A DNA stretch of 30,722 nucleotides from Thermoplasmata archaeon (GCA_030044695.1 JASIDM010000102.1:1-30722), one strand, 5' to 3'; counted from the stretch's first letter, positions 1,801-24,451 are shown. The notes: generated from the sequence alone by a model not told the origin. Numbers and translations: made by a program.

Positions 1801-1968
1801 AAGAGGCCGGGAGCAGCAACATCTACGAGAGCGTTTGCCTGGCTGCTTCGAGGCAGGGGCGGGCTGAGGCGCCGTCGTGAGGGCGCGACGGGTCGGCGAC
1901 GGAACTCGAAGCCGTGCTCGGCCCTTGGCCGGCGACGGCGCATCCTACGGCCCCCCACCCTCGGGGAC

Positions 1969-2640
1969 CTACAGCGCCGTCCCGCAGGCAGGACAGGTCG
2001 AGTACTGACCGACCGGCCAGATCTTGCCGCAGCGCGCGCACCCAACGGCGGTCCGGCCGTTCACCGACACCGGCGGGGGCGGCTCCGGAGGGCGCGCGGC
2101 GACCGTAGGGCGGGGGATCGCGCGGGGACGAGGCCGAGGCGCGGCTCTCCCCGAGCGCGACGGCGCGGCCGCCTCGTCCTCGGAGCGCACGCTCGGGCGG
2201 AACCCCAGGATGATGAGCACCACGCTCAGCGGGATCAGCACACCGGCGATCACGTCCCCGATCGTCACGCCGCCGGAGACGGTGAGCGTGAAGTTCGCGG
2301 CCTCGTGCGTGGAGCCGCTGCAGGCGTACAGGGAGTAGGTCGTCCCCGGCTGGAGCGTGGCGGAGAACGACCCGGCCTGGGCGTCGCCGCTCGCGAGGGC
2401 ATTCGCCGGCCCCGGGCACAGCGCCGCGCCGCTGACCAGGTACGCCTGGGTGTCAGGACTGCCGGCCGACCACGATACGCGGGCCGAGGTGGAGGTCACC
2501 GCGAACGGCGTGATTCGCCACGCCGAGCCGGCGGCGACCTGTTCGGAGGTCGCGCTGAAGCCCGCCAGGGCGCTCGCAAGCAGCAACGCCGCGCCGACCA
2601 CGAGCAGGGCGAGCCCGAGACCGAACCGCACCCAGCGCAC
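1969..2640 (-). CDS. Membrane protein with extracellular beta-rich domain and C-terminal zinc ribbon
   Basis: N-terminal signal/TM, second TM (VIAGVLIPLSVVLIILGF), Pro/Arg linker, terminal CARC-x11-CPAC. Confidence 0.7.
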   Translation of the reverse strand: MRWVRFGLGLALLVVGAALLLASALAGFSATSEQVAAGSAWRITPFAVTSTSARVSWSAGSPDTQAYLVSGAALCPGPANALASGDAQAGSFSATLQPGTTYSLYACSGSTHEAANFTLTVSGGVTIGDVIAGVLIPLSVVLIILGFRPSVRSEDEAAAPSRSGRAAPRPRPRAIPRPTVAARPPEPPPPVSVNGRTAVGCARCGKIWPVGQYSTCPACGTAL

Positions 2641-2769
2641 GTACCTTGAGCGCCCCGGATTGAGTTAATTTTGGCGGTCCTCCTCAAGGGGCGATTCGGA
2701 GCTCGGCGGACGGGGGGACCCGGAGCGATATCCGCGGCCGGAGCGTCCCCCTCCCGGTCGGTGGGGACG

Positions 2770-5700
2770 ATGAGCGGCGCTCGCTCTTCCCGCAGACGTT
2801 GGCCGCGGCGCCCGCGGGTCCCGAGGACCGTCCTCGTACTCGCCGTGCTGCTCCTCCTGGCCTCGGTCACCTTCCCGGTGGGCCGGACGCCACCACCCCG
2901 CGGTACGCTCGGTGAGGTGGCGGCGCTCCAGCCGTCGACCCCCCGCGGATCGGAGCCAGCGCCGGCAGCTCCCGTGGCACTTCAGGTGTCGAGCGACCCG
3001 CTCAGCACGACCGACACGCTCGACCTGAACAACGGGTCGCTCATGGCAGGGAACCAGATCCTAGCGGGCTCGAGTCCCGACCCGTGGTACGTCGCCTTCG
3101 ACCCGACCCTCGATCGGCTCTACGTAGCGTCCTACTGCTCGGTGTTCGTCCTCGATCCATCGACGCTGACGGTCGAGGGGACCCTCACCGCGGCCCAGGG
3201 ATGTGCGATCCTTTACCTCCCGTCCACGGGGGACCTGTACCTGAGCAGCCCGGGCAACGTGACGGTCGTCGATCCCGCCACGGCGGCGGTCGTCACCCGG
3301 ATCCCCGCTTCCGACGCGGGCGCCGTCGAAGGACTGTTCGTCTACGTTCCTCGGGCCAACGCGATCCTGGTCGGCGACGAGCTCGGCGAGAGCGCCAACG
3401 TCGTGAACCTGACGCTCGGGCGTGTCACCACGAACGTCACGACGGGGCTCTACGTCGACGACGGAGCGTACGATCCCGACAACGGCAACGTCTACCTGAA
3501 CGGCTACGAGAACGACACGGTCGAGATGGTGAACTCGTCGACCTGGGCGGTGAGGTTCCTGCCGCTGCCGTCGGATCTGTTCGGCTTCCTGGAGGGCGTG
3601 GGCGTGGACACTCGGACCGGCAACGTCTACGCGAGCTCCGCGTTCTACTGCACGGGGTGCGGCTACGAGGATCTCGTCGAGCTCTCGGGGGAGAATGGTT
3701 CGGTGCTCGCCGTCCACGGCCTCGGAGCTTACACCACCGGCATGGCGTACGACAACGCCACCAACCTGCTATTCGTCGCGGCTCCGGCCCGGGACGACGT
3801 CTTCGCCGTGGACCCGGACAACATGTCGGTATTCACCACCGTGCACCTCCCGACGACCGCGGTCCCGCTCCTGATCGAACCCTGGTCGCCGGCGTACGTG
3901 CCCCAGCTGAACACCATCTACCTCCCGACGGCCTCGCAAGGGTACCTCTTCGCGCTCTCGGACCGGACCCTCGAGGTCTACCGAACGTGGGGAGGCCAGG
4001 CGGACCCCCTCAGCGAGACCTGGGACACGGCCTGCGGCTGTCTCGTGGTCGGCGACTACCTCGAGAACGTGCTGTACTACGTGAACGGGACCAGTTACCA
4101 GATCCTGGAGACGGTGCCGCTCTCCGGCTCGGTCCGCGGCGTCACGTACGACGACCAGACCGATCAGCTGTGGGTCGGCCTGGGGTTCATCACCGGTTCC
4201 GGGGGCGTGGCGATCCTCAACGGCGCCAACGGCAGCCTCGTGACCACGCTCGACACGGCCGTGTGGGCGAACGCCCCGGCGTTCGACCCGGTCGATCAGC
4301 GCATGTTCGTGCCGGTGGTGACGCCCGGCCAGGTCGACATCTACAACGCGACGAACCTGACGGAGCTGGCGGAGGTCCCCGACACCGCCGCGACGAACGC
4401 GGTGTGGGACTCGGCGAACGATCGCGTCTACGTCTCGGACTGGGAGGCGAACAACGTGACCGTGCTCGACGGCGCCACGGGGGCCGTCGTGACGACGATC
4501 ACGGACGTGCCGGGGCCGGACGCGATCGTTGTCGACCCGACGACCTCGCGGGTCTACACGGGCGACCAGAACTCCCCCGAGATCTCCGTCCTCGACCCGA
4601 ACGACGATCTCGTGGTCGGCAACCTCTCCTTCCCACCCTACGCCGCCGGACTCCTGGTCGCTCCGTCAGGGGAGCAGCTGTACGTGACGAGCGAGGGCGC
4701 GAACCTGACCGTCCTCAACCTCACGGGCAACGGTTCCACAACGGTCCCTGCCGGCGCGGAGACCTACGCGATCGCGACGCTGCCCTCCGGCGTCGTCGCG
4801 CTCACGGACCTGGAGGGCGGGGTCTACTTCCTCGCCTCCGGGGGACCGTACCCGTTGACGACCCCCGTCCTGAGCATCCAGCCGAGCTACGTCGCCATCA
4901 ACGCGTCCTTCACGATCTCGGTCGCCGTCGCGGGGGGTACGGGAGGGCTCACGTACTCCTACTCCGGTCTTCCGTCCGGCTGCGTGGGCGCCGACGTGAG
5001 CACCCTCGTCTGCTCGGCGAGTCAGGGCGGACAGTTCGACGTGGGCGTTACCGTCAACGACTCCGCCGGGGATCGAACGAGCAGCTCCGCCACGCTCTGG
5101 GTCGCCTGGCCGACCTACGTGACGTTCGTGGAGCAGGGGCTTCCCGCCGGCACCGCCTGGAATGTGACGCTGGGCGGCGTGACCGTCTCGTCGACCACGA
5201 ACACGGTCCTCGTCGGGGTGCTCAACGGGACCTTCCGCTACACCGTCGGTACCTCCGACCGTCAGTTCGAAGCCGCAGGAGGCTCGTTCACCGAGACCGG
5301 CGTGGCGTTGACCGAGTCGGTGGTCTTCCACCTGGTCACGTTCGCCGTGAGCTTCCTGGAGACCGGCCTACCCCTCGGCACCCCCTGGTCCGTGGTCGTG
5401 GGGGGGACGAGCTTCGCCGCGAGCGGAACGGCGGTCGTCGTGGAGGAACCGAACGCCAGCTACGTGTACCACGTCACGACACCGGACACCGACTACACCG
5501 CGAGCGTCGGCAGCTTCACGGTGGCCGGGGCTCCCCTCACCGAATCGGTCGTGTTTCGCCCGGTGACGTTCACGGTCACGTTCACCGAGACCGGTCTCCC
5601 CTCGGGGACCTCCTGGACCGTGGTCATCGGCGGGGTGGCGCATGCCTCCACAGGGTCGTCGATCACCCTCGAGGAGCCGAACGCGAGCTACCGCTTCACG

Positions 5701-5934
5701 GTCGGCGCCGTCTCGGGATTCTCCGCGAGCCCCTCCACCGGGACCTTCACCGTGGACGGTTCGAGCGTGGACCAGGTGCTGGCGTTCTCCGCAGCCTCAC
5801 GGCCCGCGACCCTCCTCGGTCTCCCACCGACCGACTTCTACGCCCTCGTGGGGGGCGTCGCGGCGGCCGCCGTCGGTGCCGCGGCCCTCCTTCGGTGGAG
5901 AAGAGGGCGCTTTCGCCCACCCGGTTCGCCGTAG
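2770..5934 (+). CDS. Surface glycoprotein: YncE-type beta-propeller blades, an Ig/PKD-like domain, 3 thermopsin-type repeats and a C-terminal TM anchor
   Basis: ATG 2770 precedes a basic region plus hydrophobic signal. Repeated (A)YDxxNxxLYV / VxVID blades, many NxS/T sequons, C-terminal TM followed by RWRRGR. The ORF track starts upstream at 2671. Confidence 0.85.
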   Translation: MSGARSSRRRWPRRPRVPRTVLVLAVLLLLASVTFPVGRTPPPRGTLGEVAALQPSTPRGSEPAPAAPVALQVSSDPLSTTDTLDLNNGSLMAGNQILAGSSPDPWYVAFDPTLDRLYVASYCSVFVLDPSTLTVEGTLTAAQGCAILYLPSTGDLYLSSPGNVTVVDPATAAVVTRIPASDAGAVEGLFVYVPRANAILVGDELGESANVVNLTLGRVTTNVTTGLYVDDGAYDPDNGNVYLNGYENDTVEMVNSSTWAVRFLPLPSDLFGFLEGVGVDTRTGNVYASSAFYCTGCGYEDLVELSGENGSVLAVHGLGAYTTGMAYDNATNLLFVAAPARDDVFAVDPDNMSVFTTVHLPTTAVPLLIEPWSPAYVPQLNTIYLPTASQGYLFALSDRTLEVYRTWGGQADPLSETWDTACGCLVVGDYLENVLYYVNGTSYQILETVPLSGSVRGVTYDDQTDQLWVGLGFITGSGGVAILNGANGSLVTTLDTAVWANAPAFDPVDQRMFVPVVTPGQVDIYNATNLTELAEVPDTAATNAVWDSANDRVYVSDWEANNVTVLDGATGAVVTTITDVPGPDAIVVDPTTSRVYTGDQNSPEISVLDPNDDLVVGNLSFPPYAAGLLVAPSGEQLYVTSEGANLTVLNLTGNGSTTVPAGAETYAIATLPSGVVALTDLEGGVYFLASGGPYPLTTPVLSIQPSYVAINASFTISVAVAGGTGGLTYSYSGLPSGCVGADVSTLVCSASQGGQFDVGVTVNDSAGDRTSSSATLWVAWPTYVTFVEQGLPAGTAWNVTLGGVTVSSTTNTVLVGVLNGTFRYTVGTSDRQFEAAGGSFTETGVALTESVVFHLVTFAVSFLETGLPLGTPWSVVVGGTSFAASGTAVVVEEPNASYVYHVTTPDTDYTASVGSFTVAGAPLTESVVFRPVTFTVTFTETGLPSGTSWTVVIGGVAHASTGSSITLEEPNASYRFTVGAVSGFSASPSTGTFTVDGSSVDQVLAFSAASRPATLLGLPPTDFYALVGGVAAAAVGAAALLRWRRGRFRPPGSP
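5119..5802 (+). repeat. Three intragenic 76-aa (228-nt) thermopsin-type repeats
   Basis: VTFVEQGLPAGTAW at 5119, VSFLETGLPLGTPW at 5347 and VTFTETGLPSGTSW at 5575 give an exact 228-nt period. Confidence 0.85.
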
Positions 5935-6054
5935 GAAGGGGGAACGCTCCGGCCGGGGCGGTCGAAGGTACTGACACCGGTTCCTCATCCTCGGATCCGA
6001 ACTCCCCGGTCCCGGGGATCCGAGTCGTCGTCGGGCCGTGCCCTCCGGACTGGC

Positions 6055-6528
6055 TCAGGCGCTCTGGAAGGCCGCTTTGGCGTCGTCCTCGGCGGCGATC
6101 CCGCGGAGGGCCCGATCCCAGCCGAGCGTTCCACCCGCCAGCGCGAGCACGCCGAAGGCTGCCAGGGCGAGGGGAACGACGGGGAGGAGCGAGCCGGAAT
6201 CCAAGGCGAGGACTCCGACCCCGATGCCGACCCCGGCGGCCCCGAGGAGCGCGAGCGTCGTCTCGGTGTAGCCGAGCCACGTGGTCGGCAGCGCCGGGAG
6301 CACCAGGAGGAGACCAACACTGATCAACGGTACGCGCCCGCCGAGGAGGAGTCCCTCGACCGTGACGAGCCCGCCGAAAAGGGCTACCGCTTTCCAAGCC
6401 GCCAGGGAGTCTTCGACGTAGGCGACATCGGGACTCTCGAAGGGGTCCTCGGGTTCGGTCGACTGGCCGTACGCCGAGGTGGGGAAGGCCTCCGGGACGA
6501 TCGGCCGAAGATTCGTCCCACCGCCCAT
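6055..6528 (-). CDS. Hypothetical membrane protein (about 4 TM)
   Basis: ATG start, acidic N-terminus, four hydrophobic stretches, host-like codon usage. Confidence 0.65.
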   Translation of the reverse strand: MGGGTNLRPIVPEAFPTSAYGQSTEPEDPFESPDVAYVEDSLAAWKAVALFGGLVTVEGLLLGGRVPLISVGLLLVLPALPTTWLGYTETTLALLGAAGVGIGVGVLALDSGSLLPVVPLALAAFGVLALAGGTLGWDRALRGIAAEDDAKAAFQSA

Positions 6529-6895: not shown

Positions 6896-7390
6896 TTGGA
6901 TGAGGGGCGCAGGGTGGTCCAGATGGGGTTCAGTGACATGCTGAACACTGTGCCGAACAGGGCTTGGCCGTGGCTCCTCCTGACTCTTGGCGTGGTCGCC
7001 TCCCCGGCGCTCGTAGCGATTCTCGCTAGTTTGGATTTCGGACCACACCTTTCGCCGGGAAGACTATGGATAGGCGTAGTTTTCATATCTGCAATCTACG
7101 CAGGCGTCGTAGGAGTGTTCACCTGGGCCTACTCGTACAGAGCTCCGACGAGCGTTGTCATCACAGACTCCGGGGTGCGATGCGTCATCCGATTCTCGCC
7201 CCTAAAGCGATTTGCGCCCAGGAGTCTCGACATCGCCTTCGATCAGGTACGCTCCATACATGCGTTGTTTCCGTTCTGGGCCGTACGTTTCAATACGCCC
7301 GTAGGCGGGACATGGTTTGTGTACTTGTCGCGGAAGAACGCCCTGACGGCTCGAGAAGCGTGGAAGACGTGGAAATCCAGCGTAGGATGA
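6896..7390 (+). CDS. 2-TM protein with PH-like soluble domain; putative orphan immunity protein
   Basis: Two TMs followed by RAPTSVVITDSGV, resembling SAPMALSIGDSAA in 14581. GC is visibly lower than the flanks. The real start may be ATG 6923. Confidence 0.6.
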   Translation: MDEGRRVVQMGFSDMLNTVPNRAWPWLLLTLGVVASPALVAILASLDFGPHLSPGRLWIGVVFISAIYAGVVGVFTWAYSYRAPTSVVITDSGVRCVIRFSPLKRFAPRSLDIAFDQVRSIHALFPFWAVRFNTPVGGTWFVYLSRKNALTAREAWKTWKSSVG

Positions 7391-7793
7391 TCCGCTAGTT
7401 CCCGCGAGTTGCGGGCGCGGCACGAGCGCACGTCGAGTCGTCGGGAGGGCTCGCACTAGGACAGTTTCTCCGACACCTGGGCCCAGATGACCCCGTGGGG
7501 CGGAGTGCTGTTGAGCCCATCGTATCGAGTACTGCCCCCGAACTCCTCTCCCCGCCTTCGAACCGGTAGGTTCACGATCCCGCGCGTGCTCCGTGCAACC
7601 TCACGACTCGGGGCCATGACGACCCACGCTGCGGGGTGCAGGGGTAGCCCACCTCGTGGGGACCATCCCCCAGAACCGACAACCTGACCGAGGTGAACGC
7701 CACAATCGTGAGGCTGGACCAACCTCGGGATTTCGCCCGACGTCAGAACGTCTGGCAGCGGGAGCCGGCGTCCACGTTGGGCCCGGATCCCGC

Positions 7794-7837
7794 GCTCCGA
7801 TCGCGTCGCTCCTAAGGCCCTGTCTGAGCCGCCAGAG
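7794..7837. repeat. 44-bp direct repeat, distal att-like copy of the tRNA-Thr 3' end plus trailer
   Basis: GCTCCGATCGCGTCGCTCCTAAGGCCCTGTCTGAGCCGCCAGAG matches 16268-16311 at 42 of 44 nt. Confidence 0.92.
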
Positions 7838-8031: not shown

Positions 8032-11000
8032 ATGGAGTACGGCAAGTGGCGGGCACGTACGTCACTGTTTCGAAACTGTCTGCCGAACTTGACGACTCCG
8101 ACATGTTTTTCTATCGATAGGCGGTCACCCCCGCTGGGGCAGCAGGGGTGCCGGGACCCCGGCTCGACTCCGAACGGAGGCGGAGTGGCCGACCCGGAGG
8201 AACGCGCTCGAGGGCCCGAGGGCCAGCCCGCGGTTCTCCAGCGCGGGCGTGACCCGAGGGTGCCTTGCATCCGAGAAGCTGACTTCAAGGCCGGGCCCGC
8301 GGAGTATCGGTCGCGGAAACGGTGGCCCGGTCGAGGAACCTACTGGGCCAGGGGCCGTTGGGTCGCCCTCGCCGTGTTCTGTTCCGCCCTGATGCTCCTC
8401 ACCTACCAGAGCCCGAACGTCGCGGCGGAAGGAGGTGGCGGCGGTTCGGGAGGGGGAGGGAACGACTCCATGACCGTGCCGTCGTACCCCTACGACGTTC
8501 CGGTCTCGGACTACCCGACGGCCGCCATGCTCCCTACCCGCTCGAACGTCACCGGGGTCGCCGTGGCGCTGCTCCCGGGCTCGCTGACCTCGTACGCCGT
8601 CGTCTTCGCGACAGCGAACAACTCCACGGGCGTGACCAACGCGACCCTGGACTACGCGCAGGCAAGCTACAGTCCCCTCGACGCGAAGGAGATCGTCGCG
8701 AACGGCAGCTGTGGGCTCACGTGTGGCGACCTCCCCATCAACTGGTCGGACAGTTCGGTCGTCGCCTCCTCCTCGAGTCCGTGGTCCGGCCTCCAGATCG
8801 CGGCCATGGGGACGGAACTCGTCGTCGGGGCCACGACGGGCAACGTTACGCATCTCTACAACTGGTCGACCGAGGCGACGGCGTGGGCACCGTTCGGACC
8901 CACCGCCCCGGGCGTCCTCTCCTCAATGGCCGCCGAGCCGTACGCCCTGGTCTTCGCCACGCTCGCGGGAGGCGAGACCGAGCTGAGCACCTTGGGAACG
9001 GAGGGAGCCCTGCTCGGACAGGCGGAACTGGGTCCCGGGCAGACCGAGGATCGAACCGTCCTCAACGCGAGCGTGGTGTTCGTTCCGGAAGGTTCGGGGT
9101 ACGACGAGGCGCTGGTGATCTCGGTCGCGTATCCGAGCCAGATCCTCTTCAGCCAGAGCGCCGACGGCACCTCGTTCTCCACCCCGACCCCCGTCGTGAA
9201 CTTCACTGCCTCCCTGTCAGACTCCCCGCTGCCGAGTGTCGGCCTGACCTCCACGGTCATCCCGGGAGGGCGGGCCGGTCAGCTCGATCTCACGGCGATC
9301 GGCGGCCAGCTGTTCCTGCTCTACACGACGGATGTCTCGGGCCAGACCGTGCCGGCGACGGAAGTGTCGGGGACCTACGGCAGCACCTGGAGCGGCCCGT
9401 ACTTCACCGGTCCCTTGAACGGGACCGCCGTCGACCCGGTGCTGTCGGTAGGACCCACGGGGATCGTCGACGCCGCCTGGCTCGACCCTGCCTACGACTC
9501 GGGGGCTATCGAGGTGGCAACCTACTTCGCCGACGGAACCCCGCTCGACGCCCCCGAGACGGTCCTCTCGTCCGTCGCGGTCGGCCCCACCGCGGAGGGG
9601 CCACCGGTGCTGGCGGTGGACGCCCTCGGTCGTCCCCTGGTCCTCTGGTCGTGGTCGGTGAACTCGACCCCCTCGCTCGGCTACACCGGCGGATATCTTT
9701 CCGCGGAGGCAGCCCTCGCGTATCTCGAGACCCAAGCGACGGAGAGCCTGGGCGGGCCGGACTTTGTGGGCGACCCCGGGGGTGTCTCGCCCGCCGAGGC
9801 GTCCTTCGACACCAACGTGAGCGGCACGGTGCCGCAAGCCGAGGCAGACCTCTCCTCGACCGGACTCTGTGACGCCCAGAACCTGACCCTTACCGTCTAT
9901 CAGAACGTCACGCACGACCCCCTGTCGGTCCAGAACGGCACGGGCACGGTCTGTGCGGCCGACGAGGCGCCCGGCACGGCGAGTTCGCCGCTTCTTACGA
10001 CCCAAGGCGAGGCCGCCCCCAACACCTACCTGGCCGTCTACACCGACTGGGCGCTCGAGGCCGAGGGAATCCCGGTCACCGGCTCGCCCCTGGCCGGGCT
10101 CGCCCCGATTGCCCCGTACGATGAACTGCTCCCGGTGGCCAGCCTGCCACCCACGTCCGAGGACCCAGAGACGGTCCAGGGCGAGACGATCTCGCTCGCG
10201 GCGACGCCGATCCCGTACAGCCCTACCTCCTACGAACTGGCGGTCTCCGGGACCCTGCCGGGGTGGCATCTCGAGGACAATCTTCCGGTCCGATGCCCGT
10301 CGGGAGAGGAGGGGGAGTATCGGACCGGCGGGTCGACCGCCGTGACGAGCGTCTGGGAGACCATCTGGGTCGACGGCGAGGAGCTGGGGACCGTCGACGG
10401 CACCACCTCCTACCCCTCGGTCTGGGTCTACGATCTTGTCCCCGACGAGTCGTACACCTGGTCAATCGGGTTCCACGCGTCCACAACGTCGACGGGCAGC
10501 ACGTACGACAGCTGCGATGGGGTCACCACCCCGTACAGCGCCTCGCCGGGCATACCCGAGGGCTTCGCCCTCTCGGTGAGCGGGAACTTCTCCACGACCC
10601 TGTCGATCACGGCAGGGTCGAGCCTCGTCACGGCGTCGTTCGATCCCGACCAGACCGCCGCCAGCCTATCGACGAGCTTCGGGACCACGCTGCCGACGCT
10701 CGCCTGGGCGAACCTGACGAACCTCTCCGGAGGAGCGCGTCAGTCGGTGGGATCGGACGGCTTCGCGACCTCGCAGGCGTTGACGCTCCCGGACGAACTC
10801 GGGTCCGGGCTCAACTACACGCTCAGCCTCGTGGGCACGAGCCGGCCGGGGACCTCGACCCCTCCCGGTTCGCCCGCCGTGGCCTACCCTGGGGACGGAA
10901 ACTCCTCGGCCGAGCGGGCGACCACGAGCTGCTCGTTCACCGTCTCCAGCAGCCTGCCCAGCGTCTGGACGGCCGCCGCCGGCCCGATCTGGGGGCAGGG

Positions 11001-14000
11001 CGGCTCCACCACCGTGGACGTCTCCTGGTTCTCCGACGTCGACGCCCCGGGGTTCCTCACCTACGGCGAACAGGGGTCGGCCCTCGACACCACGATCTCG
11101 GAGGTCCCGCCGACCTGGGAGAGTTCGGACGTCTGGAACTACACGGTCGAGCTGCACGGACTGGAGCCGACGGCGACGTACGTCGGCTCGGTCGGGGTCG
11201 AGACGCAGCAAGGCTGCCTCACGAACCAGGACGAGGTGCCGCTCCCCACGTTCGGCACGTCCTCCACCCTACTTCGGGGCGCCAAGCCGTGGACCGAAGA
11301 CCTGCCGTATGACTCGGTCACGCAGTCCGGAGGGGGGATCGAGGTCGAGTGGAGCCGTCCGAGCGGGCTGAAGAACGGGACCGTCGAGGGTGGGGTGGCC
11401 ACGATCAGCACCTCCAGCGCCGCCTGGCTGTTCCCGTTCGCCCCGGAACAGGTGACGGGAGGGTCCGGAGCTCCGTTCGAACTCGAACTTGCCCCTCCGT
11501 TCAACAACAGTCAGACGTATACTGTGAGTCTGGAGGTGAACTACACCACGTTCACGTCGCCCGTCTTCTCGAAGGTGTCCGACGAGGAGACCTACCACGC
11601 CGACACGAGCGGCAACGGGCTCACCGACGCCGAGCAGGTGGAGGGATGGGACGTGGACATCGAACCGTGCTCTGCCTACAACGGGACGAAGACGACCTGC
11701 GGGGTGCATGTGCACGCCAAGCAGGGGGCCTACTCGACGAACGGTCTGGCGAGCGACTATCTGGAGAAGGAGCTCGACCTCGATCCGAACACGTTCGACA
11801 CGGCCTCGAGCGGGATGCTCGACCTGTGGAACCTGACGTTCAGCTTGAACGGGAGTGGCGGGACCGAGGAGCCGCTGCCCGCCGGCGTCGAAGCGTGGTG
11901 GGAGAACGGGAGCCTCGATCCGTTCGCCGGGGCGGAGTATCCTGGTGGGCCCGTGCTCGGGGGGGTACCCCTGGCGACGAACCTAACGAACCTCTCGTGC
12001 TCGGCGTTCAGTTGCGCGGGCAACTCCTCGTGGTCTTCGGAGGTGCTCTGGTCGTACGCCGCGCTCCAGGCGTTCACGGAGATGGCGGGATACAAGGCGG
12101 CCACGAGCGACGGAGGGGTGCTGCGGGGCGTCGTGGGGTCGTGGAGGGGGGTTCCCACCCTGACGCTCTGGGGGAAGATGTCCTGGGGAGCGGACCCGCT
12201 CACCAGCTCGACCCCGGACGACGGGTTGGCCGACGGCCGTCGGGTCAACCCGACGGCCGTGGAGGATCTGGACCTGAACGTCAGCTGGGCTCAGGTCTGT
12301 GTCGGGAACCCTTACTCGTCCCCGTTCAACTGGGCGCTGCACTACACGGTCGCTCCCCGCGCGTTGCCGGGCTCTCCCGAGGACCAGGGCTACTCCTACG
12401 AGATCGAGACGACAGCCTACGGAGGAAGCTGTTCGGGGTTCAACTATCAGGTCACGCTCCCGGTCAACAACACCCGACCGTCCCAGAAGGTCACGTTCTC
12501 GTTCGTCGGGAACCTTCACGGGGACGTCGACGACCTGCTGCCGACCTCGACGTGCGCGCCGGAGCTGACGGTCGACTACGACCTGCTGGTCGGGGGCACC
12601 CAGAACCTATCGCTCGATGACAACTGCAACAGCTCGGAGCTGGCGTTCTCGCTCAACGTCTCGGTGAGCGCGGTGGACCTGGGGGCGAAGGTCCCGACGT
12701 ACCTCCTGGTGCCCCCAGGGGACGGCACGCTGAGGACGCTACCGGACGGACAGTCGGAGTATGTGGGGGAGGACGCCTTCGACGTGGTGGTCGTGAACGT
12801 GAACTCCACGACCCCGGTGACCTCGGACCCGATCCCCGAGCCGGACAGCGCCTCGACATACCAGCTGACGCTGCAGCCGGGACCGAACGCGTTCTTGGTC
12901 CCGAGGACCCAGTTCCTGAACACGACGCTGGGGTATGCCCTGCTGCGGAACGAACCGATGCCGGAGCCGAGCCCGTTCTGGAGCGACACGGCCCCGCTCA
13001 TCGGGTCGGCGGAGGCGGAGGCGATGCAGAACCTGACGGGCGACAACTGGGAGGGACCGTTGGGGTCGCTGTCGTGCTACTGGCAGCAGCGGTCCCTGCC
13101 GGAGACTCCAGAGGACAGCGACTCGTCCGGAGTCTGTGGCTTCCCGGAGGGCGGGGTGCTCGACACCAGCCCGGAGTTCGTGAACGTGAACCTCGACGGG
13201 GCGAACGCCACGAGCACGAACGCGGGGGGGTTGCCTTCCGACCCCACCCTGGAGGACGCGACGGATGCCGGGGGCTCGCTGCAGGGGCTCTTCCTGGTGA
13301 ACGTCAACAACACGACATACGACAACCTGACGACCGGTCAGGAGGTCAATCTCGGACCGGTGCCGAGCCTCGATCTCCTGCTGGCGGCGCTGCTGGACAA
13401 CACGACCGAGGGAGTCAACGGCACCATCCAGGAAGTGACTCCTCAGCTGTATGGGCTCGGCCTCTCGTGGGCGGTGCTCACGGCAATCCCCAACGCGACG
13501 CTGGTCTACTCGGCGGTCTACGGCCCACCGACGGAGGTCCAGACGTCGCAGACCGGCGGTTGTTCCTGGCTCGGATGCGTCTGGGAGGCGCTGACGAGCA
13601 TCCCGGAGTGGTTCGTCTACGGTGTGGGCTACTTCTTCTCGGGCGACTGGATCGTGACGTTCGAGGGTTGGGCGGCGTCGGTCAGCCCCGAGCTGTTCAA
13701 CATGCTCAATGGGTTCTTCGAGGGCGTCTGGCACCTGATCGTCGACTTCGCTTCGGTGGTAAACGGGCTCTTCACGGAATTCGGGCGCCTGGTGGAGGGG
13801 GCGTTGGACTCAGCCCTGAACCTCGTGATGGGCTTGGAGGAAAGGGTGCTCGATGCCGCACTGTCACCCTACAACTCCCTAAGATCTGCCTTCGGCAGCG
13901 GAGTCGATGGCGCGGTGGATCCGACGGGGTCGGGCCAGGTCTGGAGCTCACTCTCAGGCCCGCTCTTCTCCGGAGCGTTTCTGGTAGCAGTAGTACTTCA

Positions 14001-14553
14001 GATCGCTACCGGCGTTATCACGGCTCTGTCGCTCGGAGCCGACTTTTTGGTGAACATTCTAGTTAGTCTAGTGTTGGCACTTGGCGTGAGTGCCTTGCTC
14101 TACACTCTGCCTTCGCTAAGTTCCCCGTCCCCATCGATGGTTTATGCGTCTCAGGACTTCGCCGATGAATTCCACTCGCAGGCTGCCCAAGAGAGTAACT
14201 GGACAAGTTGGGCTGACGCCTTTGGGTATTGGGAGAATGGCCTGTCCGACTCTTACGCCGCAGGTCAACTGACTGCCGCTTGGTCCGATGTGAAGGTGAG
14301 TGACTTTGCGTTCGGTGCTCAAGCAGCCTCATTCGCATTCGCCTTAGAGGGGTCAGCTATGGAGTTCTACGCCCAGCACGGTGGCGGTATGCTGGCAACA
14401 ATCTCCGGTATCGTTCTCGGGATGATCAGCGTGCTGCTCGAGATTCCCGGGCTCCTTAAGCCGAGCCCGACGCGAATGCTCGACGGGGCAATATTTGGGC
14501 TGGATGGATCTACTGTTGGGATTAGCATCGCAGAACTAAAAGCTGGGTACTGA
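8032..14553 (+). CDS. Giant secreted protein; putative polymorphic toxin with hydrophobic helical C-terminal domain
   Basis: Signal-like RWVALAVFCSALMLLTY and a Gly linker. FN3/purple-acid-phosphatase-N-like segment (VDVSWFSD...LTYG...VELHGLEPTATY, about 11010-11200). Degenerate TSP3/DxDxDG-type motifs (DTSGNGLTDAEQ at 11602; GADPLTSSTPDDGLADG at 12187). Paired cysteines and a ~330-aa amphipathic/hydrophobic tail. The real start is probably GTG 8185 or 8260. Confidence 0.7.
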   Translation: MEYGKWRARTSLFRNCLPNLTTPTCFSIDRRSPPLGQQGCRDPGSTPNGGGVADPEERARGPEGQPAVLQRGRDPRVPCIREADFKAGPAEYRSRKRWPGRGTYWARGRWVALAVFCSALMLLTYQSPNVAAEGGGGGSGGGGNDSMTVPSYPYDVPVSDYPTAAMLPTRSNVTGVAVALLPGSLTSYAVVFATANNSTGVTNATLDYAQASYSPLDAKEIVANGSCGLTCGDLPINWSDSSVVASSSSPWSGLQIAAMGTELVVGATTGNVTHLYNWSTEATAWAPFGPTAPGVLSSMAAEPYALVFATLAGGETELSTLGTEGALLGQAELGPGQTEDRTVLNASVVFVPEGSGYDEALVISVAYPSQILFSQSADGTSFSTPTPVVNFTASLSDSPLPSVGLTSTVIPGGRAGQLDLTAIGGQLFLLYTTDVSGQTVPATEVSGTYGSTWSGPYFTGPLNGTAVDPVLSVGPTGIVDAAWLDPAYDSGAIEVATYFADGTPLDAPETVLSSVAVGPTAEGPPVLAVDALGRPLVLWSWSVNSTPSLGYTGGYLSAEAALAYLETQATESLGGPDFVGDPGGVSPAEASFDTNVSGTVPQAEADLSSTGLCDAQNLTLTVYQNVTHDPLSVQNGTGTVCAADEAPGTASSPLLTTQGEAAPNTYLAVYTDWALEAEGIPVTGSPLAGLAPIAPYDELLPVASLPPTSEDPETVQGETISLAATPIPYSPTSYELAVSGTLPGWHLEDNLPVRCPSGEEGEYRTGGSTAVTSVWETIWVDGEELGTVDGTTSYPSVWVYDLVPDESYTWSIGFHASTTSTGSTYDSCDGVTTPYSASPGIPEGFALSVSGNFSTTLSITAGSSLVTASFDPDQTAASLSTSFGTTLPTLAWANLTNLSGGARQSVGSDGFATSQALTLPDELGSGLNYTLSLVGTSRPGTSTPPGSPAVAYPGDGNSSAERATTSCSFTVSSSLPSVWTAAAGPIWGQGGSTTVDVSWFSDVDAPGFLTYGEQGSALDTTISEVPPTWESSDVWNYTVELHGLEPTATYVGSVGVETQQGCLTNQDEVPLPTFGTSSTLLRGAKPWTEDLPYDSVTQSGGGIEVEWSRPSGLKNGTVEGGVATISTSSAAWLFPFAPEQVTGGSGAPFELELAPPFNNSQTYTVSLEVNYTTFTSPVFSKVSDEETYHADTSGNGLTDAEQVEGWDVDIEPCSAYNGTKTTCGVHVHAKQGAYSTNGLASDYLEKELDLDPNTFDTASSGMLDLWNLTFSLNGSGGTEEPLPAGVEAWWENGSLDPFAGAEYPGGPVLGGVPLATNLTNLSCSAFSCAGNSSWSSEVLWSYAALQAFTEMAGYKAATSDGGVLRGVVGSWRGVPTLTLWGKMSWGADPLTSSTPDDGLADGRRVNPTAVEDLDLNVSWAQVCVGNPYSSPFNWALHYTVAPRALPGSPEDQGYSYEIETTAYGGSCSGFNYQVTLPVNNTRPSQKVTFSFVGNLHGDVDDLLPTSTCAPELTVDYDLLVGGTQNLSLDDNCNSSELAFSLNVSVSAVDLGAKVPTYLLVPPGDGTLRTLPDGQSEYVGEDAFDVVVVNVNSTTPVTSDPIPEPDSASTYQLTLQPGPNAFLVPRTQFLNTTLGYALLRNEPMPEPSPFWSDTAPLIGSAEAEAMQNLTGDNWEGPLGSLSCYWQQRSLPETPEDSDSSGVCGFPEGGVLDTSPEFVNVNLDGANATSTNAGGLPSDPTLEDATDAGGSLQGLFLVNVNNTTYDNLTTGQEVNLGPVPSLDLLLAALLDNTTEGVNGTIQEVTPQLYGLGLSWAVLTAIPNATLVYSAVYGPPTEVQTSQTGGCSWLGCVWEALTSIPEWFVYGVGYFFSGDWIVTFEGWAASVSPELFNMLNGFFEGVWHLIVDFASVVNGLFTEFGRLVEGALDSALNLVMGLEERVLDAALSPYNSLRSAFGSGVDGAVDPTGSGQVWSSLSGPLFSGAFLVAVVLQIATGVITALSLGADFLVNILVSLVLALGVSALLYTLPSLSSPSPSMVYASQDFADEFHSQAAQESNWTSWADAFGYWENGLSDSYAAGQLTAAWSDVKVSDFAFGAQAASFAFALEGSAMEFYAQHGGGMLATISGIVLGMISVLLEIPGLLKPSPTRMLDGAIFGLDGSTVGISIAELKAGY

Positions 14554-14580
14554 GGGCGCATCACTCCAGTTGGCAGCATC

Positions 14581-15141
14581 ATGGAAGCGTACGGGTTTCC
14601 GGAGCTCGCATCCGGTTTGGAGGCACTCAATCGACCGAAGCGACTCTTGTTGCTCGGCTGGGGGGTATTCAGCGTGATTGTTGGACTCGTTGGAGCGTGG
14701 TTGGCGCTGTCCGGTCTCTCGTTCGACTTTGCCATTCTCCTCATCGCCGGCGTTCCAGGCACGGGAGTCATCTGTTTTGCGGCGGTAATCGCCTTCCCGA
14801 GCGCGCCCATGGCCCTCTCGATTGGGGATTCGGCAGCAAGTTTCAGGATGCGCGACGGTTCCACTAGAGAACTCCACTGGGCGGACCCACCCTCAGACTT
14901 GCTCGTCTACGATATGAGGCCACTTGGTTCAACGTGGGAGGACAACGTCACCCCACGCACCATCGACTTTGTGCTCATAAGCTTCCGATCTCGGCTCCGC
15001 GCCGCTATCCCGCTCGACGCGATGCGTAGCCTGGTGATGACCGCGAGGGAAAACGGCGTAGTCGTTCTGGGGTGGGAAGATACCGTCTCGAACCTCGGCC
15101 CACCAATCAAGGTCCGATTCCGAGCGCGACCGCCCTCCTGA
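14581..15141 (+). CDS. 2-TM protein with PH-like domain; putative cognate immunity protein
   Basis: Starts 27 nt after the giant ORF. Two TMs, then beta-strand-like APMALSIGDSAASFRMRDGSTRELHW and the helix AAIPLDAMRSLV. Confidence 0.65.
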   Translation: MEAYGFPELASGLEALNRPKRLLLLGWGVFSVIVGLVGAWLALSGLSFDFAILLIAGVPGTGVICFAAVIAFPSAPMALSIGDSAASFRMRDGSTRELHWADPPSDLLVYDMRPLGSTWEDNVTPRTIDFVLISFRSRLRAAIPLDAMRSLVMTARENGVVVLGWEDTVSNLGPPIKVRFRARPPS

Positions 15142-15722
15142 CCGTGCTCACGATCGTGGAAGGCGTCGTCCCCGGGGCAGGCTTCATCTTGGGCCTGCTT
15201 GTGAGCGCGCTCGTGTCGGCGGGGGTGCAGGACGCGATCTCGCACTCTCCGCTCGGTGCTGCCTCGCTGGGAGAGTCCCGAGACATCGGCGATGCGGCGA
15301 CGGTGATCCGCGACGCCATCTGTTCGGTCGACCAAGCGAGCTATGAGGCCGCGTGTGGGAACTCCTCCCTCCTGGGCGGATTCTCGGCCGTGGGGTCCGC
15401 GGTTTCCGACGTCGGTGCCTATGCGAGTAGCGGCCTGGCCGGGGAGTTGATCGCCCAAGGGACCGCGAATGACCCCCTCTTCAACGTCGAAGTGGGGTTT
15501 GCCCTGGGGATCTGCGGCATCGCGTTCGCCGGCTATGCGTTTTCGAACAAGGACTGGCAGACTGCCCTCGTCGGCGCGGTAGTTTCCTGGACAGGGTTCA
15601 TCATCGATGAAATCACTCCAGACTTCAATGAACCGTCGCTTGACACCCTTGACACCCTGAGCACGTACATTGACTTCGCGACCGCTCTTGGCTCAACCGC
15701 AGAGTTGGTCGGCTCCTTGTGA
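15138..15722 (+). CDS. Orphan C-terminal module homologous to the last ~190 aa of the giant protein
   Basis: Aligned by eye: GAGFILGLLVSALVSAGV vs GADFLVNILVSLVLALGV, and LDTLSTYIDFATALGSTAEL vs LDGAIFGLDGSTVGISIAEL. Possible GTG start at 15144; may be untranslated. Confidence 0.7.
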   Translation: MTVLTIVEGVVPGAGFILGLLVSALVSAGVQDAISHSPLGAASLGESRDIGDAATVIRDAICSVDQASYEAACGNSSLLGGFSAVGSAVSDVGAYASSGLAGELIAQGTANDPLFNVEVGFALGICGIAFAGYAFSNKDWQTALVGAVVSWTGFIIDEITPDFNEPSLDTLDTLSTYIDFATALGSTAELVGSL

Positions 15723-16267
15723 GGTGGTTCGTGGCTCTCCCTTCCACCGTCCGCTTTGACCTACGTGAACTGCAGGCACGCGCGTGGCGGGCGAGGCAGG
15801 ATCGGCAGAAGTATTTTGTGATGATCGGTGGCCTCGTGCTCATCAATCTCCTGTTCTTCGCAATCTACTACGTCAGGTTCAGCACGCAAGGTCTGAACCC
15901 ATCCACCGAGTTTACTCTGCTTCCTCTCCCGTTCTTGGAAGTCCCGTTCGTCCTAGCACCACTCTCCCTGGCGCAAGGCGCCCACGAGTTGGTTCTGTTG
16001 GACAACGCCATCATACTCCTCTACCCGTCCTCGAAGCAGCGGGTCTACGATCTGACGCGCTCTCGGTGTCACCTAACGATTCGGGGCCATGACAATCCAA
16101 CCTATGGCGTGCGCCAATGGCGAATCTCGGGGGGCCTTCCGTTTAGATCCTACATCCCTCCCGAAGCCAAGGTCGCGATCCTGGACTTGGTCCAGCGTCG
16201 GGGGTTCCCACTACGTCAGAGGGCCTGGCAGGGCGAGACGGTGTTCACGTTCGGTCCGCGGTCCTGA
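15719..16267 (+). CDS. 2-TM protein with PH-like domain; putative immunity protein of the orphan module
   Basis: GTGA start/stop overlap with the orphan. VLLDNAIIL and SYIPPEAK match SIGDSAASF and AAIPLDAM in 14581. The stop abuts the direct repeat. Confidence 0.65.
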   Translation: MRWFVALPSTVRFDLRELQARAWRARQDRQKYFVMIGGLVLINLLFFAIYYVRFSTQGLNPSTEFTLLPLPFLEVPFVLAPLSLAQGAHELVLLDNAIILLYPSSKQRVYDLTRSRCHLTIRGHDNPTYGVRQWRISGGLPFRSYIPPEAKVAILDLVQRRGFPLRQRAWQGETVFTFGPRS

Positions 16268-16311
16268 GCTCCGATCGCGTCGATCCTAAGGCCCTGTCCG
16301 AGCCGCCAGAG
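16268..16311. repeat. 44-bp direct repeat, tRNA-proximal att-like copy
   Basis: Last 11 nt of tRNA-Thr plus 33 nt of 3' trailer; 42 of 44 identical to 7794-7837. Confidence 0.92.
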
Positions 16312-16373
16312 AGAATCGAACTCCCGACCTGCTGATTACAAATCAGCCGCTCTACCGACTGAGCTATGGCGGC
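16301..16373 (-). tRNA. tRNA-Thr(TGT)
   Basis: GCCGCCA/TGGCGGC acceptor stem, D arm, anticodon arm GCTGAT-TTGTA-ATCAGC, GGGAG-TTCGATT-CTCTC T arm; CCA not encoded. Confidence 0.96.
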
Positions 16374-19513: not shown

Positions 19514-19903
19514 CTAGTAAGCCTCTACCGCGAGCCCGGGGACTCGACCGGAGCCGACAGCTCCGGTGGCCAGGACACAGCGGTGACGGAGCGCCGTCGC
19601 CACGTTCCTGGCGTCGATCCTCGGAAGCGGTTCGCCTCGGGCCCGGGGCTCCGCTCGCGACTCTCCCGCCACCAGGCTACACTCTCGGTCGAAGGGGATC
19701 ACGTGACACTCGGAGATGCGTGGCATCGCTCGGGCAAGGTAGGGACCACCCGCCACGTGTGCTCCGTCGAGGAGGTCGGCGAGGACCGGGGCGGAGTCAG
19801 CAAGGACCTCCTCCGCGGCGTCCGACGCCTTCACCTTGGCCCCCGGGCCCCGATGCCCTCGAAGCACGTCGATCAGGAACGGGGTGTCGAGGGCACGGAC
19901 CAC
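19514..19903 (-). CDS. vapC: VapC-like PIN toxin with degenerate motifs
   Basis: LDTPFLIDVLRG, VIPFDRECSLVAGE, IDARNVATAL, VPGLAVEAY; directly follows the antitoxin stop. Confidence 0.75.
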   Translation of the reverse strand: MVRALDTPFLIDVLRGHRGPGAKVKASDAAEEVLADSAPVLADLLDGAHVAGGPYLARAMPRISECHVIPFDRECSLVAGESRAEPRARGEPLPRIDARNVATALRHRCVLATGAVGSGRVPGLAVEAY

Positions 19904-20368: not shown

Positions 20369-21745
20369 ATGCAGACGAAGAGAACGACGGCCCGCCTCGC
20401 GTCGATCGCCGTCGTGGCGCTGTTCGGCCTCGCGGTCGTCCCTGCCCTCGCCGGTGCGGCGGGGGCCTCGACGGTCGCGGCGAGCTCGAACCCCGCCGCG
20501 AACGGTCCGACGAGCTGGGCCTACGGAGGCCAAGGCTGGAACTCGGGAGGCTTCACGCTCGGTGGCGTGAGCTTCTCGTGGAACGCGACGCTGGGCGGCG
20601 CCGTGATCCTCAACGCGACGAACACGAGCGCGACCACGACCGAGCTCGCGCTGACCCGGACGGTGATGGAGTCGGTGACGATGAGCTACACCGCGCCCAA
20701 CGCGTCCTGGAACTACCACATGAAGGCGCTCGAGGTCGACCACGGCTACGCCAACCTCACCAACGCTTCGAGCGTGACGCTCTCGAACCTGACGACGGTC
20801 CCGGCGCTCGGGATCCTCAACGCCTCGCTGGACGCCAGCGTCTCCCTGCAGGCGTCCCTGGTCGGGACGCTCGGGAACAAGACCGCGAGCGACTACCTGA
20901 ACGTCTCGGGCTGGGCCCACGCCCAGGTCGGCTTCTCGCCGTCGCTCGGCCTGGTGCCGCTGAACCTCACCGGCGTGACGGGCTGGAGCTCCTCGGCGGT
21001 CGCCTCGGGCAGCGCCGCCTGGAACGTCAGCTGGGCGTTCGCGAACCACGGCTGGAACGGCACGAGCGCGAGCCGCAGCGGCGACATCAACGGCACCTGG
21101 TCGACGTCGACGACCGTGGTCCTGGTCGGGCACGTCGCGGGGACCTACGCCAAGTGGGTCGACCACCGCGTCCGCACCGCCCTAGCCCTCGGGCTGACCG
21201 GGCCGTTCGACCTCTACGCGGGCGTGCTGTTCGTCCCCCGCGGCTTCGACATCCTCGGCGCGGGCACCTCGGCCTACGCGGGCTCGGGGATCGGGGCGAC
21301 GGCGGTGACCTCGGAGTACCTGTTCGTCACCACGGGCTCCCACCACCTCTACGCGGGCGCGTTCAGCGCGGCGAACATGACCGGGGGCATCGGCAGCCCG
21401 GCGGCGCTCGCGCCGGTCGGCAGCGGCGGCATGACCCCTGCGGCCTCGAGCACCTCGAGCGTGGACCCGTCGGTCTACGAGCAGCCGGAGAGCGAGGGCG
21501 CGGCGGCGAGCCAGTTCCACTGCTTCGCCGTCGGCTGCTCGGCCGGCACGAGTCCGTTCTCGGGCCTGCTCGTCCCGCTGATCGTCGCGGGCGTGGCGGC
21601 CGCGGTCGTCATCGGACTGATCGCGAGCCGCCGCTCGCGCGGCCCCGGCGGGCAGCGCGCGGACGTCCCCCTCTCGGCGCAGGCCACCGTCCCGACCCCT
21701 CCCACCGGGGTCGAGCCGGCCGGCATCGTGCGCCCGCCGCAATAA
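20369..21745 (+). CDS. Hypothetical surface glycoprotein with C-terminal TM anchor
   Basis: ATG 20369 signal peptide (MQTKRTTARLASIAVVALFGL); Ser/Thr/Asn-rich with many NxS/T; TM followed by SRRSR. Confidence 0.75.
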   Translation: MQTKRTTARLASIAVVALFGLAVVPALAGAAGASTVAASSNPAANGPTSWAYGGQGWNSGGFTLGGVSFSWNATLGGAVILNATNTSATTTELALTRTVMESVTMSYTAPNASWNYHMKALEVDHGYANLTNASSVTLSNLTTVPALGILNASLDASVSLQASLVGTLGNKTASDYLNVSGWAHAQVGFSPSLGLVPLNLTGVTGWSSSAVASGSAAWNVSWAFANHGWNGTSASRSGDINGTWSTSTTVVLVGHVAGTYAKWVDHRVRTALALGLTGPFDLYAGVLFVPRGFDILGAGTSAYAGSGIGATAVTSEYLFVTTGSHHLYAGAFSAANMTGGIGSPAALAPVGSGGMTPAASSTSSVDPSVYEQPESEGAAASQFHCFAVGCSAGTSPFSGLLVPLIVAGVAAAVVIGLIASRRSRGPGGQRADVPLSAQATVPTPPTGVEPAGIVRPPQ

Positions 21746-21747
21746 AC

Positions 21748-21816
21748 GGGCCGCCCGCGCGGCCCCAGGAGGTGGGTCCTTCGGGACCCACCGTAACCCC
21801 TTCCCGGGAGTTTTTC
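21748..21816. terminator. Two hairpins plus a T tract between convergent genes
   Basis: GGGCCGC-CCGC-GCGGCCC at 21748-21765; perfect GGTGGGTCC-TTCG-GGACCCACC at 21771-21792; T6 at 21811-21816. Confidence 0.55.
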
Positions 21817-21835
21817 GAACCTCATCCTTGCGGCG

Positions 21836-24418: not shown

Positions 24419-24451
24419 GAATCGACCCCGGCTCGTCAGCGATCGGCGGCG

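Follow-up and report, generated by a model that had tools for sequence, protein, structure and literature searches.

Why should a gene for a giant surface protein be followed, on the same strand, by a gene for a small protein with two transmembrane (TM) helices, a detached relative of the giant's own C-terminal end, and a second gene for a small two-TM protein? This question is raised by a 30,722-nt stretch of DNA from a Thermoplasmata archaeon (GCA_030044695.1, JASIDM010000102.1:1-30722), which we call the window. Its source contig (C134) belongs to a metagenome-assembled genome (MAG) of 1.32 Mb that is 72% complete and has ~70% GC, and the window sequence is also present in four peat metagenomes. 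A first-pass annotation, made from the window sequence, had read the four genes as a toxin/immunity/orphan toxin/immunity locus of polymorphic toxin type, from a family that it did not recognize. We found that the giant protein carries, on a conserved body, exchangeable cassettes that each consist of a variable tail and a downstream partner gene; that such cassettes also occur as trunk-less orphans; and that partner genes occur in arrays in genomes that lack the giant. The reading that we favor, and hold to be probable by a modest measure, is that of a polymorphic, contact-dependent, membrane-targeting effector with immunity exerted within the membrane.

The order giant, partner 1 (W_s1), orphan tail (W_orph), and partner 2 (W_s2), all on the + strand, and the coordinates from the first-pass annotation were confirmed by the open reading frames (ORFs) and by the GC content at third codon positions (GC3), which is 0.85, 0.70, 0.76, and 0.73 for the four ORFs in order. 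The W_orph ORF opens at a GTG at position 15072, comprises 216 aa, and ends at 15722, where its stop overlaps the start of W_s2 (GTGA). The family proved as unfamiliar to the databases as it was to the annotation. No Pfam, NCBIfam, or PDB family is matched by any component of the system, and Pfam and NCBIfam searches with all four proteins returned nothing except one sub-threshold stretch in the giant that resembles fibronectin type III (FN3) domains.

Evidence for exchange comes from the source genome itself, which encodes three full-length giants (window, C153, and C37), two long trunk-less fragments (C103_big, 716 aa, and C37_935, 935 aa), and two short orphan tails (W_orph and one on C94), each followed by its own two-TM gene. 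Nucleotides 462 to 1655 of C103 correspond to window positions 12557 to 13750 at 94% DNA identity, after which the match breaks, and nucleotides 1912 to 3065 correspond to window positions 15125 to 16278 (the orphan tail and W_s2) at 89% DNA identity. At the protein level, W_orph is 91% identical to the tail of C103_big, and W_s2 is 86% identical to C103_s1. Based on these mosaic matches, we conclude that the window's orphan cassette occurs elsewhere fused to the giant's own pre-tail, the conserved domain that precedes the helical C-terminal module. Compared with C103, the ratio of nonsynonymous to synonymous divergence (dN/dS) is 0.36 for the orphan tail and 0.27 for W_s2, and therefore both are under constraint (purifying selection). 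The possibility that C103 is the window locus in a variant strain was rejected, since the flanks differ and both sequences have equal depth in the four peat metagenomes, which indicates that they are paralogues in one genome.

The point at which identity is lost is sharp. Between the window giant and C103, the constant start of the helical module is still ~95% identical up to nt 13750 (residue ~1906), and identity collapses beyond it. In four independent intragenomic pairs (W/C103, C37 giant/C37_935, L058, and L072), the junction lies ~270 residues from the C terminus, and identity in 30-residue windows drops there from 76 to 100% to 23 to 43%. The pre-tails of the window giant and C103 differ by a synonymous divergence (dS) of 0.16 with a dN/dS of 0.16, and the next 113 codons have a dS of 1.4. 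GC3 is 0.88 to 0.91 in the trunk; along the tail it drops to 0.78 and further to 0.60, and in W_s1 it is 0.70. The lower values of the tail and W_s1 relative to the trunk fit a cassette of outside origin.

The annotation had taken the orphan for a homologue of the giant's tail and the two-TM genes for relatives of one another. Direct BLASTP comparison gives no significant support for either claim (E of 0.17 for the orphan versus the giant and 0.77 for W_s1 versus W_s2), but both are borne out by the C103 mosaic and by profiles that were built without any sequence of the source genome, with shuffled sequences as the control. The leave-out partner profile scores W_s1 at 59.6 bits and W_s2 at 56.6 bits (best shuffle, 8.2 bits), and the leave-out helical-module profile scores the giant's tail at 25.6 bits and W_orph at 16.1 bits (best shuffle, 6.3 bits). 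Therefore, all tails form one divergent helical family, and all partners form one family. C153_s1 and C37_s2 are not separable from shuffles by the leave-out profile, and they are assigned to the family by position and architecture (two TM helices plus domain). W_s1 is 29% identical to C94_s1, and the adjacent C94 orphan tail is 32% identical to the giant's tail.

The same arrangement recurs in other genomes. A word-based search found 11 full-length relatives, and a profile of the C-terminal 670 residues matched 681 clusters at 50% identity, 251 of them with an E of ≤1e-30. Among the matches listed (150), the proteins are 1.8 to 2.7 thousand residues long or, where they consist of the module only, 370 to 930 residues long, and the profile match ends ≤~60 residues from the C terminus in all but P0156, in which it stops ~130 residues short. 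When species-representative genomes were probed with the conserved trunk block (WGKxSWGA, LDLWNLTF), 40 loci were retrieved, all from Thermoplasmata MAGs (one labeled Candidatus Lutacidiplasmatales and one titled "bacterium"). The family was found only in such MAGs, which come from peat and soil. In nearly every locus that extends far enough, a partner lies directly downstream of the module, either as a profile match or, in a second subfamily, as an ORF of 150 to 250 residues with two TM helices and a beta-rich domain, and six contigs found via the protein database have the same pattern. L058 and L072 contain giant-partner-orphan-partner arrays, L049 contains a giant followed by three orphan modules, and in L037, L050, and L073 the giant has two or three partners. 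Identity to the window is 30 to 57% in the trunk, ~20 to 25% in the pre-tail, and 6 to 23% (mostly 10 to 20%) in the tail, for which homology across loci is undetectable by pairwise BLASTP. A search of Thermoplasmata with the trunk thus yields what the first-pass annotation had anticipated, which is a conserved trunk with divergent C termini and a different two-TM gene behind each.

Tails and partners change together. Over 15 pairs, tail similarity and partner similarity are correlated with a Mantel r of 0.93 (p of 2e-4), and the rho between pre-tail similarity and partner similarity is -0.04. A shared pre-tail is combined with a different tail and a different partner in W/C103, C37g/C37o, and P0007/P0009, and a diverged trunk is combined with a similar tail (0.62) and a similar partner (0.47) in P0007/G004. 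Cassette exchange, orphan cassettes, and co-variation of tail and partner are shown by these comparisons, and support in part the proposed toxin/immunity/orphan layout.

Partners are also found where there is no giant. In a survey of 81 congeneric genomes with the partner and trunk profiles, the partner profile matches 48 genomes and the trunk profile 13; both profiles match in 10 genomes, and the partner profile alone in 38. Incomplete assembly probably does not account for all of this because two of the giant-less genomes consist of only two contigs: G007 (90% complete) has eight partner genes and G010 (78% complete) has nine, and neither has a trunk. Their partner genes are clustered on both strands with no adjoining tail and are ≤37% identical to one another, which indicates diverse repertoires rather than recent duplicates. 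These arrays resemble the polyimmunity loci of bacterial polymorphic toxins described by Zhang et al. in 2012 (PMC3482391), and, as far as gene content is a guide, they add support for a protective, immunity-like role of the partner. The window has a stand-alone gene of this kind, with no adjoining tail, outside the left repeat (Table 1). The leave-out partner profile scores its product at 15.4 bits (best shuffle, 8.2 bits), its C-terminal motif resembles that of the partner directly behind the giant in L049, and its hhalign match to the partner alignment A1 is weak (4.6% probability). It is likely an orphan partner. A separate gene of ~170 to 225 aa with the motif VRIPGSPRTYEVRDVLRGMGLRWDP..H.WHG recurs inside the partner-only arrays of several giant-less genomes (L075:4646-5293; L076:2737-3411, - strand; L078:708-1343, - strand; and L032:2857-3363). 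It has no Pfam match and may be a marker of mobile or variable islands.

The giant is probably exported, judging by its signal-like N terminus, its sequons, and its acidic trunk. Of its 50 N-x-S/T sequons, 49 precede residue 1822, and the trunk contains 188 D+E versus 32 K+R. Homologues have an N-terminal hydrophobic segment at the equivalent relative position. The public gene call for the giant (2,027 aa) begins at M147, downstream of this segment (window 8032 to 8470), and database versions of the giant family may therefore lack signal peptides. For the N-terminal trunk region, all of the closest ESM-Atlas clusters that have a name belong to BNR families (scores of 0.77 to 0.80), an Asp-box-like SGTYGSTW motif can be read, and there is no Pfam or PDB sequence match. 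As a lead only, these 580 residues may form a BNR-type propeller. The FN3-like elements that the annotation had read in the trunk come down to one match to Pur_ac_phosph_N (E of 1e-5), which at 26.5 bits is below the cut-off of 30. Its TSP3-like elements can be read by eye (DTSGNGLTDAEQ and similar) but have no Pfam match, and the Ca-binding-like motifs DGLTDxEK, TNGLxxDY, and LDPNTxDT lie with LDLWNLTF and WGKxSWGA in the most conserved trunk block. The pre-tail is beta-rich in an AlphaFold2 (AF2) model with a predicted local confidence (pLDDT) of 70 to 85 over residues ~1550 to 1820. PDB sequence profiles for the trunk, for the pre-tail plus tail, and for the partner gave nothing credible, and a match to a tape-measure protein (E of 0.0015) over the helical stretch was taken as compositional.

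Strongly hydrophobic helices are confined to the last ~200 residues of the giant. Hydropathy places a ~52-residue hydrophobic hairpin at residues 1976 to 2026 and a last hydrophobic helix at residues 2115 to 2138. Residues 1846 to 2173 are predicted to be all-helical, with one ~70-residue helix. The AF2 model, however, has a pLDDT of 30 to 45 here, and therefore no claim can be made for its fold. Foldseek against the PDB with the model of the pre-tail and tail gave nothing at an E of ≤0.001, and the best ESM-Atlas score for the tail, 0.82, is at chance level. In 51 modules compared, the final 330 residues are acidic (on average, 7.9 K+R versus 21.8 D+E), with no positive-inside signal, a composition that would be unusual for a plain polytopic anchor.

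Both W_s1 and W_s2 have two N-terminal TM helices followed by a soluble part of ~110 residues. The AF2 model of W_s1, based on an alignment of 16 partners (pLDDT of 82 and predicted template modeling score of 0.72), begins with a short strand that bears the FDL motif of the family; two long TM helices follow, then six strands, one helix, and finally two more short strands. In the partners, 3.4 K+R are found on average in the 15 aa before the first TM helix, the loop is short and uncharged, and the C-terminal domain has a net charge of +5, a charge bias that places both ends of the partner in the cytoplasm. The nearest named ESM-Atlas clusters are bPH_6 and bPH_7 (0.93). None of the 16 partners (0/16) is matched by Pfam, and the best Foldseek match of the W_s1 model in the PDB has an E of 0.35 (cut-off, ≤0.001). 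We rejected kinship with bPH_2 at the profile level, where hhalign against genuine single-copy bPH_2 proteins of the same genomes gave a probability of 3%. Because of these Foldseek and hhalign results, "PH-like" describes an impression of the partner and not its membership in a family. The acidic tails and the basic cytoplasmic domains of the partners may complement one another in charge, or the tail may switch from a soluble to a membrane state.

If the system is an effector with its immunity protein, the trunk, with its BNR-like region and Ca-binding-like motifs, would hold or contact a neighboring cell, and the helical tail would enter the cytoplasmic membrane of that cell and damage it, by pore formation or depolarization, via the hydrophobic hairpin. 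The partner would be the immunity protein. Its N terminus and basic soluble domain would lie in the cytoplasm, and its TM hairpin would bind the cognate tail within the membrane, both in the producer (self-protection) and in its kin. Orphan cassettes would be a reservoir for tail switching, and partner-only arrays would guard against the tails of other strains. We favor this reading because an economy of weapons and shields best accounts for the partner-only arrays and the stored orphan cassettes, and because two-TM immunity proteins, such as Imm-CdiI and Imm17, are known for membrane-acting polymorphic toxins (PMC3482391).

Several observations weigh against it. Tails form one family and partners form one family, which fits a lock-and-key recognition system equally well. 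A Sec-exported protein with hydrophobic helices of ~20 residues should stay in the membrane of its producer, and no mechanism of release or delivery is visible. The helical modules are acidic and lack a positive-inside bias; searches of Pfam, NCBIfam, the ESM Atlas, and PDB profiles detected no toxin, pore-forming, or processing domain in the tail; and because the AF2 model of the tail is unreliable, the idea of a pore former has hydropathy as its sole basis. Partners found only in arrays are ≤35% identical to any sampled tail-linked partner, and the partner family could serve a purpose that has nothing to do with the giants. Lastly, no tail polymorphism was seen within the four peat samples.

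Two copies of a 59-nt direct repeat, the right one overlapping the 3' end of a tRNA-Thr gene (Table 1), exactly bracket the whole giant-plus-cassette module. In 8 of 32 loci, the edge of the module has a tRNA gene no more than 500 bp away, versus ~2% expected (binomial P of ~1e-7, a value that is inflated by relatedness of the genomes); the edge tRNAs are Thr, Val (two loci), Gly (three loci), Arg, and Leu. In L046, a 60-nt repeat (7345 to 7404 and 13824 to 13883) overlaps a tRNA-Arg gene. The repeat-bounded segment contains no integrase, replication, or DNA-transfer gene. Excision of the segment as an island was considered, and no excised joint was seen in the four metagenomes.

The main rival is a system of self/non-self recognition (kin discrimination or selective adhesion) with no lethal toxin, in which the tail and the two-TM partner would be a lock-and-key identity pair, and matching pairs would permit stable contact, fusion, or cooperation, in the manner of IdsD/IdsE of Proteus or of polymorphic adhesins such as TraA. 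We consider it unlikely but a serious contender. It accounts well for tails and partners that have each diversified in sequence within one family, with no swap to unrelated folds, for the strong co-variation of the two, for an adhesin-like, sequon-rich trunk with BNR-like and Ig/FN3-like leads, and for the lack of a toxin domain, and self/non-self recognition is also left open as a hypothesis by the authors who described the analogous VARTIG system of Thermococcales (PMC8416519). However, diverse partner-only arrays in giant-less genomes are what acquired immunity should produce, and an identity tag accounts for them poorly; the storage of trunk-less tail cassettes under purifying selection is a typical trait of toxin reservoirs. 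A doubtful further proposal borrows from both the effector and the recognition readings, and supposes an intramembrane toxin/immunity or identity system peculiar to Thermoplasmata. Adhesins would join the membranes of two cells, tails would pass laterally into the neighbor's bilayer by a membrane-exchange route that needs no secretion machine, and helix-helix recognition with a matching two-TM partner would decide their fate. If true, this would be a principle of delivery and recognition described for no archaeon, and the system would be the first of the polymorphic conflict type to have arisen in archaea without descent from a bacterial one.

Two more readings explain fewer of the observations than do the effector and recognition readings. 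The tail could be a structural anchor for an S-layer-like giant in a possibly wall-less cell and the partner a membrane chaperone or insertase that inserts or stabilizes it, with variation as a by-product of paralogue recombination or virus pressure. This is improbable, although hydrophobic helices are expected to act as stop-transfer anchors, and although the genes are tightly coupled, with overlapping stops and starts at C153 and at the orphan and partner 2. In addition, the membrane PH-domain proteins DdE/DdF of the enterocin DD14 cluster, which are linked to the handling of a membrane-active peptide, serve the transport of that bacteriocin rather than classic immunity (PMC13262744), but PH or bPH_2 kinship of the partner is unsupported. 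An anchor also gives no reason for a sharp conserved junction, for a hypervariable buried tail on a conserved exposed trunk, for trunk-less orphan cassettes, or for partners kept in giant-less genomes. It is highly improbable that the module is best seen as cargo of tRNA-integrating islands, in which the giant would promote contact or fusion for DNA exchange and the partner would be an exclusion factor against redundant contact. The repeat bracket at tRNA-Thr, the second bracketed case in L046, the excess of tRNA genes at module edges, and the patchy occurrence of the trunk in the genus agree with such islands, but the bracketed segment has no gene for integration, replication, or DNA transfer, and no excised form appears in the four metagenomes. 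Moreover, mobility does not favor this reading, because it is equally typical of toxin/immunity islands.

The genes around the module are of ordinary metabolism (aquaporin, GNAT acetyltransferase, urocanase, acyl-CoA synthetase, 3-hydroxyacyl-CoA dehydrogenase, and thiolase). Long ORFs in alternative frames or antisense (window 3084 to 6323, 20578 to 21891, 24035 to 25261, and others) were rejected as genes; they are artefacts of 70% GC, since their high GC sits at codon position 1 and not at position 3. The window encodes a second large secreted protein (1,087 aa, 2671 to 5934, + strand) that is unrelated to the giant and has no Pfam match. Its features are an N-terminal signal, numerous sequons, repeated "...VxVLD/VxVVD" units that suggest a beta-propeller, Ig-like repeats, and one C-terminal TM helix with a basic tail. 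A small ORF (19514 to 19903, - strand) has a weak, below-cut-off match to a PIN domain (E of 0.0016) and may be a toxin-antitoxin remnant unrelated to the giant locus.

Table 1. Features of the giant-plus-cassette locus (positions counted from the first nucleotide of the window)
Feature	Position	Strand	Remarks
Stand-alone partner-like gene	6896..7390	+	164 aa; 2 TM + beta-rich domain; outside left repeat, no adjoining tail
59-nt direct repeat, left copy	7779..7837	.	86% identical to right copy
Giant surface glycoprotein gene	8032..14553	+	longest ORF 2173 aa; GC3 0.85, sequons, paralogues and homologues; true start uncertain
Signal-peptide-like hydrophobic segment	8338..8409	+	residues ~103-126, RWVALAVFCSALMLL..., from translation
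N-terminal trunk region	8449..10191	+	residues 140-720; possibly BNR/sialidase-like beta-propeller
FN3-like stretch	10990..11205	+	residues 987-1058; sub-threshold Pfam match
Most conserved trunk block	11584..12291	+	residues 1185-1420; from alignments
Pre-tail domain	12529..13566	+	residues 1500-1845; beta-rich (predicted), conserved across family
Constant start of all-helical C-terminal module	13567..13749	+	residues 1846-1906; AF2 secondary structure
Variable tail	13750..14550	+	residues 1907-2173; helical (predicted); identity to C103 collapses
Partner 1 (W_s1)	14581..15141	+	186 aa; N-terminal beta strand, 2 TM helices, beta-rich domain, C-terminal helix (predicted); cognate of the giant's tail
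Orphan tail cassette (W_orph)	15125..15722	+	homology from 15125; no trunk, no signal peptide
Partner 2 (W_s2)	15719..16267	+	182 aa; 2 TM + soluble domain; cognate of the orphan tail
59-nt direct repeat, right copy	16253..16311	.	overlaps tRNA-Thr 3' end by 12 nt
tRNA-Thr(TGT)	16300..16373	-	ARAGORN

Bacterial contact-dependent competition and kin discrimination are well characterized. For archaea, a haloarchaeal type-six-like contractile injection system has been reported to mediate contact-dependent antagonism (PMC11566945). Archaeal polymorphic toxin systems were still only predictions in 2021 (PMC8416519), and the few archaeal polymorphic toxins seen by Zhang et al. in 2012 were regarded as acquisitions from bacteria (PMC3482391). 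A full-text literature search on Thermoplasmata and polymorphic toxins, with Makarova et al. (2019, mBio) outside its coverage, found no description of the present family. If the tail is a membrane toxin, archaea would have invented the strategy independently, and both the membrane-active domain and the fold that confers immunity within the membrane would be new; if tail and partner are a recognition pair, they would provide the first molecular handle on self/non-self discrimination in these archaea. On either reading, cognate and noncognate tail-partner pairs are now defined well enough for direct testing.

Among systems that act at membranes, pore-forming colicins with their integral-membrane immunity proteins offer a helical hairpin to which the tail can be likened by hydropathy, the colicin pore domain being a ten-helix bundle with a buried hydrophobic hairpin. 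IdsD/IdsE of Proteus mirabilis, which are delivered by a type VI secretion system, are a co-varying pair with a small integral membrane partner and with specificity in or near membrane-spanning segments. They have no homology to the Thermoplasmata tail or partner, and Ids is not known to have partner-only arrays or orphan cassettes. CdiA-CT/CdiI of Escherichia coli EC93 (Imm-CdiI, with two TM helices) and Tox-WTIP likewise pair an effector that has a hydrophobic helical part with a small protein integral to the membrane. With Pfam, PDB profiles, and Foldseek, the colicin pore domain, Tox-WTIP, and CdiI were not matched in sequence or in fold, and, unlike the immunity proteins of membrane-acting toxins, the partner has an extra cytoplasmic beta-rich domain of ~110 aa. 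The partner also resembles bPH_2 or YdbS-YdbT-like proteins (PF03703) in having two N-terminal TM helices and a small beta-rich domain that ends in a helix.

The nearest archaeal likeness is VARTIG of Thermococcales (Makarova et al. 2021, PMC8416519), which is also a lineage-specific locus with a large surface protein, a recombining hypervariable C terminus, variable downstream genes, and polymorphic-toxin-like organization. However, VARTIG (arCOG07710) varies an Ig domain with other downstream genes, whereas the Thermoplasmata family varies a helical membrane module with one family of two-TM partners. The several Ig domains of VARTIG are not seen in the giant, in which the FN3-like stretch is the sole Ig-family Pfam match; there is no homology between the two, and no VARTIG counterparts outside Thermococcales have been reported (PMC8416519).

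The closest likeness in organization is to bacterial polymorphic toxin systems (CdiA-CT/CdiI, Rhs-CT/RhsI, and MafB; PMC3482391). In common with them, the Thermoplasmata family has a large, probably exported protein whose body is conserved and whose C-terminal module recombines, a co-varying cognate small gene directly downstream, trunk-less module-plus-partner cassettes (window 15125 to 16267, C94, C103, C37, L049, L058, and L072), and a patchy, island-like distribution. In its parts it differs from them, being hosted by archaea and having no TPS/FHA, Rhs/YD, Hint, PT-TG, LXG, or VENN element and no known toxin or immunity family. The features that define contact-dependent growth inhibition (CDI) proteins (TPS, FHA, VENN, and CdiB) and Rhs proteins (YD/Rhs and PxxxxDPxGL) are not found in the giant by Pfam or NCBIfam, in line with the earlier reading of a trunk devoid of Rhs, FHA, and Hint signatures. 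The archaeal host has no outer membrane. Whereas the bacterial systems deploy unrelated enzymatic toxins, the putative effector here is one diversified helical membrane module. We conclude that this is a large family of undescribed domains that reproduces all the genetic hallmarks of polymorphic toxin systems, among them arrays like polyimmunity loci.

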